A DNA stretch of 9,481 nt from positions 1-9,481 of IMG/VR virus record IMGVR_UViG_2711768076_000006. The stretch is one strand, 5' to 3'. This stretch comes from a virus (lineage: Duplodnaviria > Heunggongvirae > Uroviricota > Caudoviricetes). Both the position numbers and the translations under genes were made by a program. The notes below the pieces were generated by a model. The model did no database searches. It worked only from the letters and a program-made list of their open reading frames with translations, and had not been told where the DNA came from. Numbering within the stretch: the first letter of the stretch is position 1; each line of letters begins with the position of its first letter. Below, one piece after another: positions 1,124 through 8,448 of the stretch.

Positions 1124-1279
1124 TTACTCCTCAGGTTCGTAAGCTGTGAAGACAGCGACCTCCGTCTGGCCGGTTCGGATTCGTACCTCGCAGAGGTCTT
1201 TCCTCGTTACCAGTGCCGTCACTATGACGGTTAAACAGATGACGATCAGGGCGATTAACATCGCCTTTTGCTGCTTCAT
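1124..1279 (-). CDS. hokD: Hok/Gef-family type I toxin, 51 aa membrane peptide
   Basis: MKQQKAMLIALIVICLTVIVTALVTRKDLCEVRIRTGQTEVAVFTAYEPEE is a canonical Hok sequence and matches HokD/RelF as I recall it. AAGGAG lies 9 nt upstream of the ATG at 1279. Confidence 0.85.
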   Translation of the reverse strand: MKQQKAMLIALIVICLTVIVTALVTRKDLCEVRIRTGQTEVAVFTAYEPEE

Positions 1280-1336
1280 AGCCTGCTTCTCCTTGACCTT
1301 TCGGTCCGTAAGAGGCAATCTATATGTGACGAGCAT
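1124..1336 (-). CDS. mok: Mok reading frame (in-frame N-terminal extension of hok that couples hok translation)
   Basis: ATG at 1336 in frame with hok adds MLVTYRLPLTDRKVKEKQA, which resembles the N-terminus of chromosomal Mok peptides (mokC MLNTCRVPLTDRKVKEKRA from memory). Confidence 0.55.
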   Translation of the reverse strand: MLVTYRLPLTDRKVKEKQAMKQQKAMLIALIVICLTVIVTALVTRKDLCEVRIRTGQTEVAVFTAYEPEE

Positions 1337-1378
1337 ATAGGGGCCTCACTTCGATTTATAGTCGGGTGGGGCTTTTAT
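1315..1378 (+). ncRNA. sok: Putative Sok-type antisense RNA opposite the mok translation start
   Basis: Inference from hok/sok architecture. + strand TTGACC at 1293-1298 is a possible -35, but no good -10 hexamer follows at 16-19 bp spacing. Imperfect hairpin GCCTCAC (1343-1349) / GTGGGGC (1365-1371) is followed by TTTTAT. Boundaries are approximate. Confidence 0.3.
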
Positions 1379-1471
1379 CTATCTGCCGTTGGTGTTCATG
1401 CCCGAGGCAGATAGCCTCAAGCACCCGCAGCAATTCTACTTAACTCTGCCGTTACAGCAAACCGTTTTCGC

Positions 1472-1495
1472 CCGATATGGGAATTCCCATATCGG
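1472..1495. repeat. 24-bp perfect palindrome CCGATATGGGAATTCCCATATCGG, function unknown
   Basis: The sequence equals its own reverse complement. It lies between the solute-binding-protein gene 3' end and the hok leader, with no U-run on either strand, so it is not a canonical terminator. Confidence 0.9.
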
Positions 1496-1560
1496 AATGA
1501 ATTCAGTTCACCTGGCGAGGCTTAGCGTACAATTTTTTCCGTTTTGTGAGCTGCCCCTAC

Positions 1561-1612
1561 ATGCCGCTGGCGCGGCATCCGGAAAAAGAATCCACGTCCT
1601 GAAGGACGTGGA
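1561..1612 (-). terminator. Rho-independent terminator region for the solute-binding-protein gene
   Basis: On the - strand, hairpin TCCACGTCC-TTCA-GGACGTGGA (1591-1612) followed by TTCTTTTTCC, then a second hairpin ATGCCGC-GCCA-GCGGCAT (1561-1578); starts 6 nt after the stop at 1618. Confidence 0.55.
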
Positions 1613-1617
1613 GGATG

Positions 1618-2376
1618 TCAAGTGCCTTTCCTGGTCCAGCCATATTTTTTGAATGCAGGCGCCGCTTCATCGGTTTGTAGCCATTCTGCAAATCGACGGG
1701 TTTCATCATTTGCATCCTGACGTACTGTAATGTTCATATCACGCCATATCACGTAGTCTGGCGCTATTTCCACGACATCACCAATTTCTGGATTACTGGC
1801 TGCCCAGTCAGCCCAGGTTATCCAGACATCTGCTCCAGGCTGATTCTCAAGAGCCTTACGTGCAGTTCCGCTATTGGGCGCATATAAAATAATATTTTTT
1901 CGGATTGCGGCGACAGTTTCTATATTCCCTTTACGTCCGGCAATATCTTCCCAGACGCCAGTGCCTGATGTATTACTGGTACCACCACCATCATTAACAA
2001 TTACGCCAATCCCGGGTCTGGTCAGGTCGTCAATACTCCGGATATTTTTAGGATTACCTTTCTTTACCAGTAAAATACTTTTTCGCAGATAAAGAGGCTG
2101 AATATCTTTTTCACTGAAGCTGTCTTTATGGTCCCGAATGATAGCCAGAGCAGATTGTTCTGATGCGCCAAACAAGATATCTGCATTTTTTTTGGCATCT
2201 TCATTCCATTTGTTCTGTGGACCGTAATGAACGTTCACTATAACACCTGTTTTTTCGGCATAAAGTTTGGCTGCTTCAAGCAAGGCTGTATGCGGGCCAC
2301 CAGGACCATACAGATTGATATCAGCATAAGCAGCAGAAGACAGGAATATTAAAAAACCTGCCATTATGTTCCTCAT
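1618..2376 (-). CDS. Secreted periplasmic solute-binding protein, ModA/WtpA-like, with no cognate transporter genes in the window
   Basis: 252 aa. N-terminal signal peptide MRNIMAGFLIFLSSAAYA with an AYA-D cleavage site. Mature N-terminus INLYGPGG...AEKTGVIVNV and C-terminus ...FKKYGWTRKG follow the ModA-type binding-protein pattern as I recall it. AAGGAG 7 nt upstream of the ATG. A 260-bp AT-rich region lies upstream. Confidence 0.85.
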   Translation of the reverse strand: MRNIMAGFLIFLSSAAYADINLYGPGGPHTALLEAAKLYAEKTGVIVNVHYGPQNKWNEDAKKNADILFGASEQSALAIIRDHKDSFSEKDIQPLYLRKSILLVKKGNPKNIRSIDDLTRPGIGVIVNDGGGTSNTSGTGVWEDIAGRKGNIETVAAIRKNIILYAPNSGTARKALENQPGADVWITWADWAASNPEIGDVVEIAPDYVIWRDMNITVRQDANDETRRFAEWLQTDEAAPAFKKYGWTRKGT

Positions 2377-2540
2377 AAAAAACTCCTTTTATTGGTTATC
2401 ATGAAATAAAATTATAAACACCACAAATAATATATATTATATCCAGATAAACTTATCCGACTTTACCTCGTGCATAGCTTGTTATTTAAAGTTAACAAAA
2501 TAAGGAAAATTATACGCATATTGAAGAGTATAAACCTTAC

Positions 2541-2568
2541 ATGTTGATTACATTTTTGTAATCAACAT
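2541..2568. promoter_or_regulatory. 12-bp perfect inverted repeat (ATGTTGATTACA-TTTT-TGTAATCAACAT), candidate operator upstream of the solute-binding-protein gene
   Basis: Seen directly in the sequence, about 170 bp upstream of the ATG at 2376 in the AT-rich region. A TATAAT hexamer lies between the repeat and the gene on the - strand (near 2505-2510). Confidence 0.4.
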
Positions 2569-2794
2569 CCTGTTTGGAATAGCCAGCCTTTAATGGATAA
2601 CTATTTCTGACAATGCAATGAGTATAATCAAGTCCATCTTCCACTGAGAATTAGAGGCGGCATGCTTTTTCCGGCTCTTGCCGGATATCCGTAATTGTCC
2701 ATAATCTGCAGATTTATACCTTCTGCATGACCTGTCAGCGAAAATTTGTCCGGTGTTTCTACGGGAATGACATCAAAAGTTACACGCACTCGCG

Positions 2795-3106
2795 TTACCG
2801 TGTAGACCTACTTTCCTGCACTTGCAAGATCACAGTGGTGTAACCGTAACAGGAATTTATTCTCTGGACCGGCAGTAAATCCCTGAGTGGCGTGGTTCCC
2901 ATATCAATTTCCCGCCAGGCAGCCTCCATTGCCAGCGTACAGGCTGGAGCCATGACCTGCCCTTTAAATCTGGCCCGACCATCCCACCGGACGTGTTCTT
3001 CTCCCCTGAACTTAGGTACAGTCATCTCCAGTGGCACAAAAGTGTCAGCGCCATGATTTTTGACCGTTATCGCGCTACGGATATTTTGTTGACTGGTGAA
3101 AATCAC
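2795..3106 (-). CDS. Hypothetical protein (103 aa), weak call, possibly a gene remnant
   Basis: Track ORF that starts with GTG and has no clear RBS; no family recognised. It is in the same frame as the DUF1627-like gene but separated from it by at least three stop codons. Confidence 0.2.
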   Translation of the reverse strand: MIFTSQQNIRSAITVKNHGADTFVPLEMTVPKFRGEEHVRWDGRARFKGQVMAPACTLAMEAAWREIDMGTTPLRDLLPVQRINSCYGYTTVILQVQESRSTR

Positions 3107-3235
3107 CCCGCAGAATCAGGCTTATTCCCTTAACCCGGGATTTCATCCTGACCGCCGCCTCACTACGACCAATCAGACTGCCGATGCATTTTACCTTCAT
3201 TGTTAGTATCATGATTTCAGGCCTGCACCATCCGC

Positions 3236-4033
3236 TCATTGCCCGGACTTCCGACAAATCCCGGCAACCATATCCCGGTGCTTGTTCAACTCCCGCAGCG
3301 CGGCGCAGACTCGCTCCCACTTCTGGACATGATTCTTCGCCCTACGCAGTTCGCGATTTGCCATATGCAGCGATGGCAAAATCAAATCATCTTCTCGCGT
3401 TGCAGTAAACGATGGCAGCGACTGCACAATGTCCGCCACAGTTTCTGTTTTAATATCTTCCTGTGTTGCATCTTTCTGTACCGGTAACGCAACACCGGCT
3501 GGCTGAGGAAAGGCTTTACCATCGGTTTCCGTTACCGATACGGCTTTCGGCTTTGCTGGTAAATTATCGTCCGGCATGCAGTAACGGAATTTACCGTTCT
3601 GATTTACGCGAATCAGACGCCCTTTGCTGATTGCCATTGCCAGCGTTGAAGCTACTTTGCGTGATGTGGTACCGAACAACGTAGCCAGTTCATCCGCCGT
3701 TTGTGGTCCGCGTTGTTCAATCGTCGCGGTTAAATCGCACTCTGAGATTTTCGCTACTGTTGCTGTGGTGGTTTCTTCCGGCAGCTCTGCCTGCGCTGGC
3801 TGTTCCTGCTGAACGTTGTTATCAGCCACACGCCAGGTGTACGCGCTTTTATCAACAAAACCAGCCTTTTTCAGTTCCCATAGTTCGTTAAGCACTTCTT
3901 CACGACTGACATCAAGTCGCGCCGCAAGTTCTATGGATGTGGCTTTTCCCATTGCTTTCAGTGCGTCAAAAACAGTCTCCATTAAATTTTTTTCCTGGTA
4001 AAAATTACTTTGTGATTCCTGGCTGGACGACAT
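3236..4033 (-). CDS. DUF1627-like prophage protein with an N-terminal winged-helix-like domain and an acidic linker
   Basis: 265 aa ORF directly downstream of the DnaC-like gene, the usual position in Rac-type prophages (ydaW position). The ATG at 4033 overlaps the DnaC-like 3' end by 29 nt; the alternative ATG at 3982 ([13 protein letters not shown]...) is also possible. Confidence 0.75.
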
Positions 4034-4751
4034 TCGGGCGCCAGCTTTCCCAGTTAAAACTCACCCAGCGTCCGCCGTTCATGGTCATGCGATCCATAAT
4101 CCGCTCACCGAGCAATGTTTTCATGGCCTCATAGTTCAGGTTTGTCAGCATTCCCACGCTACGCATCGACGCTGTCCGTCGATCAATAATCTGGTGCAGT
4201 ACTACCTGCTCGTTTTTCGTCTCGCGCTGAATGCCAATTTCATCAAGAACCAGCAGATCCACTTCGCACAGTTCCCGCAATAATTTTTCGCCTGACTGCC
4301 CGTCGTCATAGCTGGCATGCAGGGCACTCATAACATCAGCCACGGTAACCACAATCACTGCCTGACCGTCTTTCAGCAGGCGATTTCCGATAGCTGCCGC
4401 TAAATGGTTCTTCCCGGTACCAGGTTTTCCGCTGAACGCAAAATTTGTACACCCGGTCATCAGTTCATCGGCGATGGATTTCGCCTGGCTTAACGCGTAT
4501 CGCTGGCCGTCGTTCTGCACCTGGTAATTTGCAAACGAGCATTTACGATGCAACGGCTGGATGCCTGAGCGATTCAGAATTTTTTCCACCCGCAACTGAC
4601 GATTCAGGCGGTTGATCTCCTCGCTACGTTTTCGCCCTTCTGCAAGCTGCCACTCTCGCCACTCGTCCACTGTCCGGCACGGCGCGGTTACATGCTGCGG
4701 AGTCAGCTTACGGATACGTTCAAGAACACCGCCTGTCGCAATATTTTTCAC
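4005..4751 (-). CDS. DnaC-like replicative helicase loader (AAA+ ATPase), YdaV-like
   Basis: 248 aa with Walker [16 protein letters not shown] and Walker [12 protein letters not shown] start with GGGGG 9 nt upstream; begins 7 nt after the O-like stop. Confidence 0.9.
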
Positions 4752-7555: not shown

Positions 7556-8131
7556 ATGGATTTCAACACGATCATGGGAAAGGCTTACGAAGAATACTTC
7601 GAAGGCCTTGCCGAAGGCGAAGAAGCTCTCAGCTTCAGTGAGTTTAAACAGGCACTCAGAATAAGAATGTGCTCTCACAATGACGCGGAGCACAAATATG
7701 AGAAGCAAAATCAGACCGCAGAAAATTTTGTTCTGGAACCCGGAGAAACGCTTTTCAAAATTCCCGTTACGTGCCCCATTTGCGGTTTTACATCAGAAGA
7801 ACTTGACGACTCCTGTAACAATCAGGAAACAACCAAGTATGTCGAAGATGATACCGAGTGCGCACGAAGAACGATTATATCCACGAGTCCAAACTCCAGG
7901 ACCAATAAATCTCACTTTGAGAGGGTGATTAATCCACTCCCCCAAACCAATAAAAAAGATGCCGGAGGACAAAAAACCCAATGGAACAACGGGATATCTG
8001 TCAAAAAAAGACGTTCCATTAAAGACAAACAACGCAGCGCCAACAACTGTAAGCACTTTATACCAGTAATCAATTTTCATGTTCTTAAGCGGATTTATTG
8101 GTGGTTGCGACATTGCTTAATGAATCCTTAA
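7556..8131 (+). CDS. Small early-operon protein whose frame runs on for 191 codons; only the N-terminal ~90 aa look protein-like
   Basis: ATG at 7556 is 1 nt after the upstream TGA, with GGTGAG upstream. Beyond about 7800 the frame is rich in AGA, AGG, ATA and CGA codons and lies antisense to a membrane-protein ORF. Confidence 0.3.
   Translation: MDFNTIMGKAYEEYFEGLAEGEEALSFSEFKQALRIRMCSHNDAEHKYEKQNQTAENFVLEPGETLFKIPVTCPICGFTSEELDDSCNNQETTKYVEDDTECARRTIISTSPNSRTNKSHFERVINPLPQTNKKDAGGQKTQWNNGISVKKRRSIKDKQRSANNCKHFIPVINFHVLKRIYWWLRHCLMNP
7793..8113 (-). CDS. Putative small inner-membrane protein in the sieB position (superinfection-exclusion-like)
   Basis: 106 aa with three hydrophobic segments (YKVLTVVGAALFVF, VVPLGFLSSGIFFIGLG, ALGIIFDILGCFLIVTGVV). 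ATG at 8113 with AAGGA 11 nt upstream; alternative ATG at 8080. Convergent with the early operon, as sieB is in lambda and Rac. Confidence 0.4.
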   Translation of the reverse strand: MSQPPINPLKNMKIDYWYKVLTVVGAALFVFNGTSFFDRYPVVPLGFLSSGIFFIGLGEWINHPLKVRFIGPGVWTRGYNRSSCALGIIFDILGCFLIVTGVVKFF

Positions 8132-8390: not shown

Positions 8391-8448
8391 TTTCTGGTGA
8401 CTTTTGGCGGTATCAGTTCTACTCCGTGACTGCTCTGCCGCCCTTTTT
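8391..8448 (+). ncRNA. dicF: DicF small RNA (antisense inhibitor of ftsZ translation) with its 3' terminator
   Basis: TTTCTGGTGACTTTTGGCGGTATCAGTTCTACTCCGTGACTGCTCTGCCGCCC plus a T-run closely matches the K-12 DicF sequence as I recall it. It sits immediately upstream of dicB as in Qin. Confidence 0.7.

Follow-up and report, generated by a model that had tools for sequence, protein, structure and literature searches.

A solute-binding protein encoded on a prophage with no transporter genes beside it raises three questions: which protein it is, how its gene is placed in the phage genome, and what it may do there. We addressed them for a stretch of 9,481 nt, here called the window, whose relevant features are collected in Table 1. 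A preliminary description, made from the sequence before any database search, had seen an orphan ModA/WtpA-type periplasmic binding protein carried as a prophage moron. The gene turned out to be paa, also called adfO, known from descriptions dating back to 1999-2003 and routinely used as a PCR marker for high-risk STEC and porcine E. coli. Being long described, named in RefSeq and used as a marker, it has little weight as a discovery. The oddity is nevertheless real, since a binding protein without a transporter is called an adhesin; how it promotes adherence is a question recognized in the literature on its relatives AcfC and PEB3.

Table 1. Features at and around paa, with positions and strands given for the window
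Feature	Position	Strand	Description
paa/adfO coding sequence	1618..2376	minus	252 aa + stop, "AcfC family adhesin Paa"
Sec-type signal peptide	2323..2376	minus	residues 1-18, predicted cleavage between AYA and D
Shine-Dalgarno AAGGAG	2383..2388	minus	6-nt spacer to the paa ATG; sequence read directly
AT-rich paa upstream region, presumed promoter/regulatory	2377..2580	minus	204 nt, 25.5% GC
Intrinsic terminator of paa	1581..1612	minus	G+C-rich stem, loop TTCA, T-tract
Portable paa module (gene, terminator and upstream region)	1555..2580	minus	86% identity with ETEC IncFII plasmid (blastn)
Entire variable cargo between the DUF1627 gene and hok	1447..3265		1.8 kb
Truncated, frameshifted fimbrial-subunit pseudogene fragment	2578..3042	minus	phrog_29700 match
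DUF1627 gene; the cargo follows this last conserved gene of the early region	3236..4033	minus	PF07789, E=3.7e-93
hok/sok locus (type I toxin-antitoxin) next to the cargo	1124..1426	minus	HOK_GEF, E=2.9e-23; hokD annotation

Identity and expression signals of the gene

The open reading frame is complete and lies exactly where it was first placed. At the nucleotide level it was 99.5-100% identical to genes annotated in RefSeq as "paa: AcfC family adhesin Paa", and the protein was 99% identical to the RefSeq cluster of that name. BLAST detected the ORF in 611 of 5,426 complete E. coli genomes (at least 99% identity in 563 records), with 582 chromosomal and 36 plasmid placements. In the phage collection, full-length matches were present only in PPompW prophages of STEC O145:H28. 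E. coli AMSHJX01 (giant panda) carries an identical ORF, and the whole window is 99.98% identical there; the allele differs by ~0.5% from the common O157 allele. The published adfO primers (PMC4366395) matched without a mismatch at 2285-2302 (minus strand) and 1801-1820 (plus strand), and the span of 502 bp between their outer ends (1801-2302) compares with a published product of 501 bp. By sequence, the identification as paa (= adfO) is secure.

In O157:H7 strain EDL933, adfO is z2053 in O-island 57 and always co-occurs with ckf (z2054), which is described as a phage-associated cell-killing factor (PMC8565820). Paa/AdfO, the porcine attaching-effacing associated protein, as found in OI-57 (prophage CP-933O) and in the PPompW prophages, is encoded by the same gene as that of the window. 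In OI-57, too, the gene is flanked by a DUF1627 gene and, on its other side, by a hok-like gene, and beyond the allele there is no difference of substance. Judging by its position and by the published description of ckf, the hok gene of the window is probably the ckf equivalent. Earlier publications cover the gene itself, its place on a prophage, the hok-like gene paired with it and the homology to AcfC and PEB3; RefSeq names the gene.

Paa is predicted to be exported. Its N-terminus, MRNIMAGFLIFLSSAAYA followed across the predicted cleavage site by DINLYGPGG, combines a basic n-region with a hydrophobic core, in which Kyte-Doolittle values rise to 2.8, and with a cleavage motif of the A-x-A type. 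When Paa was aligned with PDB sequences, the mature crystallized PEB3 chains were found to start at the residue aligned with Paa residue 19. In an AlphaFold model, the N-terminal helix had low pLDDT and was detached from the fold. The sequence contains no Cys, and Paa is therefore not a lipoprotein. The sequence features and the PEB3 chain start together point to a Sec-exported soluble protein.

The expression signals were then compared with those of the paa copy on an ETEC plasmid. The AAGGAG sequence is kept in the plasmid copy, and the upstream region is conserved at ~86%, the conservation reaching about position 2570-2580. This region (2377-2580) contrasts in composition with the window outside the cargo, which has 49% GC, and positions 2541-2568 in it form a perfect inverted repeat (12+4+12). 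In a promoter scan, the ~200 nt of conserved sequence upstream of paa yielded no sigma-70 consensus match; the sole minus-strand match (2650-2621) lies outside the paa module, and the scan was not enriched relative to shuffled sequences. A promoter of paa's own is therefore only inferred. Downstream, the terminator begins 6 nt past the stop codon and consists of a 9-bp stem (1591-1612) followed by TTCTTTTT. Its RNA fold has an energy of -20.5 kcal/mol (z=-3.6 relative to shuffles). The signal peptide, ribosome-binding site, AT-rich upstream region and terminator of the preliminary description were thus all borne out.

Variable cargo between the DUF1627 gene and hok/sok

The window represents the early region of a Rac/lambda-like prophage. 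Its order is racR-like repressor, ydaS/cro-like gene, ydaT, a 321-aa replication-region ORF, a DnaC/IstB-like ATPase gene (ydaV), the DUF1627 gene, the cargo and hok/sok; DicF RNA and dicB lie on the opposite side of the racR-like repressor. Within the hok/sok locus, Rfam sok was matched at 1277-1426 with 103.9 bits. The gene had been said to sit alone. This is not quite so: hok/sok follows immediately downstream, and the fimbrial pseudogene and a small ORF separate paa from the DUF1627 gene. RefSeq labels the fimbrial fragment "fimbrial protein; frameshifted; internal stop", and its sequence corresponds, at 85-86% identity, to an internal stretch of the subunit gene in intact chaperone-usher operons. 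Beside one intact copy of the fimbrial operon (L004) lies the gene for PgtC, a periplasmic regulator of phosphoglycerate transport; a link of PgtC to Paa was rejected (best BLASTP E=0.33).

As the preliminary description had proposed, the junction between the DUF1627 gene and hok was compared across related prophages. Prophage L003 has the backbone ydaS, ydaT, ydaU, ydaV, DUF1627 and hokD, and between its DUF1627 gene and hokD, QueH and a DUF977 gene take the place of paa. Homology between the window and L003 ends at 1446 and restarts at 3266, which delimits the variable cargo to 1447-3265. The arrangement DUF1627, fimbrial remnant, paa and hokD was found in 573 genomes, including O157:H7. At a coverage of at least 80%, the cargo edge pieces 1447-1554 and 3043-3265 were present in 576 and 573 genomes, respectively, and the whole block in 573. 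Since these counts are nearly the same, the 1.8-kb block travels as one unit.

Within the cargo, only 1555-2580 is common to the paa variant of the ETEC IncFII plasmid, where a Tn3 remnant and IS elements form the edges of the module. We detected no terminal repeats, inverted or direct, of the kind expected if the paa module were a transposable unit; the repeats present were short ones at chance level and two local palindromes. The gene's own terminator and ribosome-binding site, its deviant composition and the replacement polymorphism at a fixed junction support the view that paa is a phage moron, with a promoter that is presumed. We are highly confident of the overall picture, in which the ORF is paa/adfO, encoding an AcfC/PEB3-family colonization factor of E. 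coli that are attaching-effacing, Shiga-toxigenic or enterotoxigenic. The gene is a self-contained moron on a Rac/lambda-like prophage, placed with the DUF1627 gene and hok/sok on its two sides, with its own ribosome-binding site and terminator and with no transporter. In calling it a moron, the preliminary description was correct, but it had missed that this virulence gene is well known.

The same description had offered superinfection exclusion, sequestration of a periplasmic ligand and interference with a host ABC importer as hypotheses. The protein would then serve the phage, for example if the importer is a phage receptor or entry route. A role of this kind would suit a prophage-borne gene near accessory genes expressed in the lysogen (hok/sok, and dicB/DicF on their side of the immunity region), and orphan periplasmic proteins could in principle hinder DNA entry. 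However, PADLOC returned no defense family at E values up to 1. The paa module is found on non-phage plasmids, homologs occupy ordinary chromosomal sites in many genera, and PPompW-type carrier prophages are mostly defective (PMC8112680). For these reasons, we regard an exclusion function, and service to the phage in general, as very unlikely. Carriage is, moreover, strongly tied to eae-positive pathotypes, and the reported phenotypes concern host colonization (PMC4366395, PMC8565820); the published role is that of an adherence and colonization factor (PMC8565820, PMC2749873, PMC11420993).

Family, ligand loop and missing transporter

In a profile search of the window ORFs, Paa residues 20-247 matched Pfam SBP_bac_11 (E=1.5e-34); the ORF also matched phrog_11834 (E=3e-175). 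By sequence, Paa came closest, among solved structures, to AcfC of V. cholerae (4JB7, E=1.5e-81) and to PEB3 of C. jejuni (E about 3e-81). Sulfate-binding proteins appeared in this PDB sequence search only at E about 1e-4, and ModA was absent from it. The AlphaFold model, built with 35 homologs, had a pLDDT of 91.3 and superposed on PEB3 and AcfC structures (3fj7, 4jb7 and 2hxw) with TM scores of 0.95-0.97 and an rmsd of 1.1-1.7 Å. The next-nearest fold was that of ModA, with Foldseek TM scores of about 0.77 (target-normalized) and about 0.71 (query-normalized) at 13-17% identity. As modeled, Paa is one closed two-lobed solute-binding fold of the PEB3/AcfC type.

ModA, WtpA and the sulfate-binding proteins share with Paa the Pfam family SBP_bac_11 and a small-anion pocket made from Ser/Thr loops between two lobes. 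In contrast to these similarities, identity to Paa is only 13-20%, and no modBC or cysTWA genes lie beside paa. Membership was assessed with the curated NCBIfam cut-offs (TIGR01256, 62.5 bits; PRK10677, 253; PRK10752, 288; TIGR00971, 155.5). Paa scored far below them as a ModA (20.3 bits with TIGR01256 and 11.7 with PRK10677) and as a sulfate/thiosulfate-binding protein of the Sbp/CysP type (22.6 bits with PRK10752 and 21.5 with TIGR00971). Across the models for ModA and sulfate-binding proteins, scores of 12-23 bits faced cut-offs of 62-470. Membership among tungstate-binding proteins was rejected as well, since all NCBIfam scores were far too low and the likeness exists at the fold level only. 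The modB permease and modC ATPase genes of a ModA operon were absent from the window and its 18-kb context. "ModA-like" is therefore apt solely in the sense that no other fold comes nearer after that of AcfC/PEB3, while the sequence family is AcfC/PEB3/Paa; the first classification was right about the fold and wrong about the family.

A common feature of the family is the loop SNTSGTG, in which S134, T136, S137, G138, T139 and G140 are invariant in 35 aligned members. Paa T136/S137 align with PEB3 T138/S139, the numbering having been checked via the K135E entry 3FIR. T138/S139 are the assigned ligand-site residues of PEB3, and we take T136/S137 to be the putative anion-binding pair of Paa. Mutation of T138/S139 reportedly abolishes ligand binding by PEB3 (Min et al., 2009). 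The titles of PDB entries name anionic ligands in the family, namely L-phospholactate in PEB3 and D-aspartate in AcfC.

AcfC, the accessory colonization factor C of Vibrio cholerae, is 52% identical to Paa, with a TM score of 0.97 (4JB7). Both proteins have a signal peptide, no transporter and the SNTSGTG loop, and AcfC is encoded in a horizontally acquired colonization island. They differ in their surroundings: acfC belongs to the Vibrio pathogenicity island, where it follows the chemoreceptor-like acfB, whereas paa is prophage- or plasmid-borne and has no chemoreceptor gene nearby. PEB3 of Campylobacter jejuni (2HXW, 3FIR, 3FJ7 and 3FJG) is 52-53% identical to Paa, with TM scores of 0.95-0.96. 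It shares the Thr-Ser of the ligand site and, like Paa, is called an adhesin yet is a periplasmic binding protein. Unlike paa, its gene is a chromosomal core gene, and PEB3 is N-glycosylated at a DFNVS sequon, where the aligned Paa sequence is DSFSE and contains no sequon.

The preliminary description had stressed that no permease or ATPase gene accompanies the binding protein. This was confirmed by the ORF list, a profile search and the annotation, both in the window and in the 18.8-kb context of a near-identical genome. We extended the comparison to 80 species-representative family loci with up to 5 kb of flank, using phmmer with an ABC ATPase seed. Any ABC ATPase was found in ~12 of them, and an adjacent, co-oriented one at a single locus (L068). 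Cognate permease or ATPase genes were also absent from ten diverse homolog contexts (Edwardsiella, Enterobacter, Raoultella, Francisella, Helicobacter, Aeromonas, V. cholerae, Salmonella plasmids, E. albertii and a second E. coli type). Non-prophage copies are common (on plasmids, in the aga locus of E. albertii, and in Edwardsiella and Enterobacter) and likewise occur without such genes, so the contrary observation named by the preliminary description, a non-prophage copy next to its own permease and ATPase genes, was not made. Lack of a transporter is typical of the AcfC/PEB3 family and not special to paa. In Enterobacter bugandensis, a complete ABC operon is found 690 nt upstream of the family gene; it was not counted as a cognate transporter because it comes with a binding protein of its own and another contig lacks the linkage.

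Rather than ABC importers, the neighbors of family genes are sensors, regulators and adhesin genes. Adhesin and colonization genes recur in host-associated bacteria. In Vibrio they include type IV pilus genes, a ToxT-like regulator and the TagA mucinase; in Aeromonas, a FaeA regulator and an usher; and in E. coli, FimB/E-like recombinases, an autotransporter and an invasin-like protein. Type II secretion remnants were found in Raoultella. Beside distant members, we detected histidine kinases, an ECF sigma factor with a secreted repeat protein, and a LysR regulator with a SLAC1/TehA-type anion channel. The family reaches free-living marine and environmental bacteria, and the anion loop is invariant there too. 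This family-wide view, with the orphan state as the typical one and the loop invariant in free-living bacteria, may help to frame experiments.

Possible roles of Paa

Published phenotypes link paa to colonization. [quoted passage not shown] The EDL933 homolog is up-regulated in bovine rectal content (PMC8524897). A mechanism consistent with the data would begin with transcription of paa from its own promoter, which would be independent of the phage lytic program and is probably silenced by H-NS. The exported protein would bind a small anionic ligand or group in the cleft between its lobes, candidates being a phosphorylated or carboxylated metabolite, sulfate and a sulfated glycan. Binding of this ligand would promote intestinal colonization and adherence, and it would be the lysogen living in the gut that gains from it, rather than the replication of the phage.

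How ligand binding might lead to adherence can be read in more than one way. We lean toward Paa being a periplasmic ligand sensor or accessory protein, which would either provide an input to chemotaxis or signaling, as for AcfC, or, as has been proposed for PEB3, hand over a nutrient to a carrier encoded elsewhere; the adherence defects of the mutants would then be indirect. This periplasmic-receptor reading is preferred because there is no surface anchor, the protein is predicted to be a single closed binding fold, and the pocket is invariant in free-living bacteria. The histidine kinases, ECF sigma factor, LysR regulator, SLAC1-type channel and DcuC-type carrier found beside homologs count in its favor. 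AcfC is periplasmic and is needed for mucin chemotaxis and a normal intestinal distribution, but not for cell adhesion (PMC5976639). A point against a periplasmic sensor is that the classical literature names Paa and PEB3 adhesins.

The main rival takes that name literally. After its export by Sec, Paa would reach the cell surface or the medium, possibly by type II secretion, and itself bind sulfated host glycans or mucin, making the first contact before intimin-dependent attachment. We consider this possible but rather doubtful. Paa, AdfO and PEB3 have been described as adhesins and mutants adhere less (PMC8565820, PMC2749873, PMC11420993), and recombinant AcfC binds the sulfated glycosaminoglycans heparin and chondroitin sulfate as well as mucin in ELISA (PMC5976639). 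The homologs that recur beside adhesin or pilus genes (the fimbrial remnant of the window, Aeromonas, Vibrio and E. coli) or beside secretion remnants (Raoultella) would also fit a surface function. However, sequence and profile searches of Paa detected no anchoring feature (lipobox, Cys, beta-barrel or repeat domain), and the solute-binding fold of the model takes up the entire protein. AcfC, located in the periplasm, had no effect on cell adhesion in the study cited above, and the adhesin status of the PEB proteins has been questioned (PMC3417527). Moreover, the pocket loop is invariant in marine free-living bacteria, which have no host to adhere to.

Uptake of a nutrient is a further explanation, which we judge unlikely. 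Paa would capture 3-phosphoglycerate, PEP or a similar anion and deliver it to a host transporter encoded elsewhere on the chromosome, giving the lysogen a metabolic gain in the gut. PEB3 is reported to bind 3-phosphoglycerate and PEP and is described as a transporter component for such metabolites (PMC3417527, PMC12469816). The L-phospholactate and D-aspartate of the PEB3 and AcfC entries agree with capture of this kind, as does the embedding of the E. albertii copy in a locus for aga/GalNAc utilization. In five Campylobacter species of the C. lari group, a DcuC-type carrier is encoded ~0.8 kb downstream of the homolog. These loci are closely related and are therefore not independent evidence, and DcuC-type carriers are not known to work with binding proteins. 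Against uptake also stand the 79 of 80 family loci with no linked permease or ATPase and the lack of a known transporter partner in E. coli. Nutrient uptake overlaps with the sensor variant of the periplasmic-receptor reading.

The periplasmic-receptor reading of Paa can be widened to its relatives. It is possible, though less likely than not, that the whole AcfC/PEB3 family, including Paa, consists of transporter-less periplasmic anion receptors and not of adhesins; they may inform chemoreceptors, kinases or sigma-factor systems, or pass their ligand to non-ABC carriers. If this is true, the adherence phenotypes of paa/adfO mutants would be indirect, and the genes would have spread with adhesin, pilus and prophage islands since sensing of mucus anions positions the bacterium for attachment.

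Possible origin of the paa cassette and alternative cargo at the hokD junction

The paa (adfO) gene encodes an AcfC/PEB3-family binding protein and occupies a cargo block between the DUF1627 gene and hokD. The features discussed here are listed in the table. A fimbrial-subunit gene fragment abuts the paa module and shows 85-86% identity to the subunit gene of intact chaperone-usher operons, which occur both chromosomally in E. coli (L004) and on an IncF plasmid (L005). This suggests a fimbrial locus as either the source of the paa cassette or a waypoint on its route into the prophage.

In related prophages, paa is replaced at the same junction by queH (epoxyqueuosine reductase) and a DUF977 gene. 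The DUF1627-hokD junction is thus a hot spot for cargo, occupied by at least two morons that replace one another. The carriage of a tRNA-modification enzyme by a prophage is perhaps interesting in its own right.

Coordinates of the features in the prophage window and in the compared loci
Feature	Location	Strand	Remarks
Fimbrial-subunit gene fragment	window 2578-3042	-	truncated and frameshifted; at upstream edge of paa module
queH and DUF977 cargo	L003 (related prophage, NZ_OZ040192.1) 2871-4244		junction equivalent to window 1447-3265
Perfect 24-nt palindrome CCGATATGGGAATTCCCATATCGG	window 1472-1495		just inside left edge of cargo
Perfect 12+4+12 inverted repeat ATGTTGATTACA-AAAA-TGTAATCAACAT	window 2541-2568		minus-strand reading; upstream edge of paa module
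sok antitoxin RNA of hok locus	window 1277-1426	-	103.9 bits
DicF RNA	window 8392-8443	+	71.5 bits; upstream of dicB
E. albertii paa homologue	L020 7001-7762		87% identity; non-prophage site
Raoultella planticola homologue	L010 6970-9236		82% identity

Palindromes, terminator and small RNAs

The two palindromic sequences in the cargo block are candidates for an operator, a terminator or a recombination site. The inverted repeat is only partly kept in the paa copy of an ETEC plasmid (L002). This variant gene is approximately 91% identical to paa of the window and is labeled in RefSeq only as "substrate-binding domain-containing protein." In addition, the terminator hairpin found at window 1591-1612 has lost its 5' arm in L002 through a 9-nt deletion (around 7939-8000), and transcription termination of the plasmid variant may therefore differ. 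The DicF and sok RNAs detected in the window are standard in Rac/Qin-type prophages.

Homologues in other bacteria

The AcfC/PEB3/Paa family reaches free-living and marine bacteria, including Roseobacter, Sulfitobacter, Paracoccus, Endozoicomonas, cyanobacteria and Flavobacteriia. Among the 80 species-representative loci analyzed (L023-L102), ABC transporter genes were almost never linked to the homologues. Conserved partners in sub-clades were an ECF sigma factor accompanied by a Lipoprotein_15 repeat protein, a LysR regulator paired with a SLAC1/TehA anion channel, and a histidine kinase encoded directly downstream; in the C. lari group of Campylobacter, the conserved partner was a DcuC-like carrier.

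The E. albertii homologue is present as an insertion within the aga/N-acetylgalactosamine PTS utilization cluster, whose substrate is a sugar derived from mucin. The R. planticola homologue adjoins what is left of a type II secretion system, namely, a PulS-like pilotin and a C-terminal fragment of GspL. These remnants are possibly relevant, because Ho et al. 2008, as cited in PMC8565820, reported the adfO phenotype in a study of type II secretion in EHEC.

Glycosylation sequons

The N-glycosylation sequon DFNVS of PEB3 aligns with DSFSE in Paa (residues 84-88), which thus lacks that sequon. Residues 211-215 of Paa (DMNIT) do form a D-x-N-x-T sequon, which is distinct from that of PEB3. Because E. 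coli lacks PglB, this sequon is irrelevant there, and it is a curiosity for glyco-engineering.
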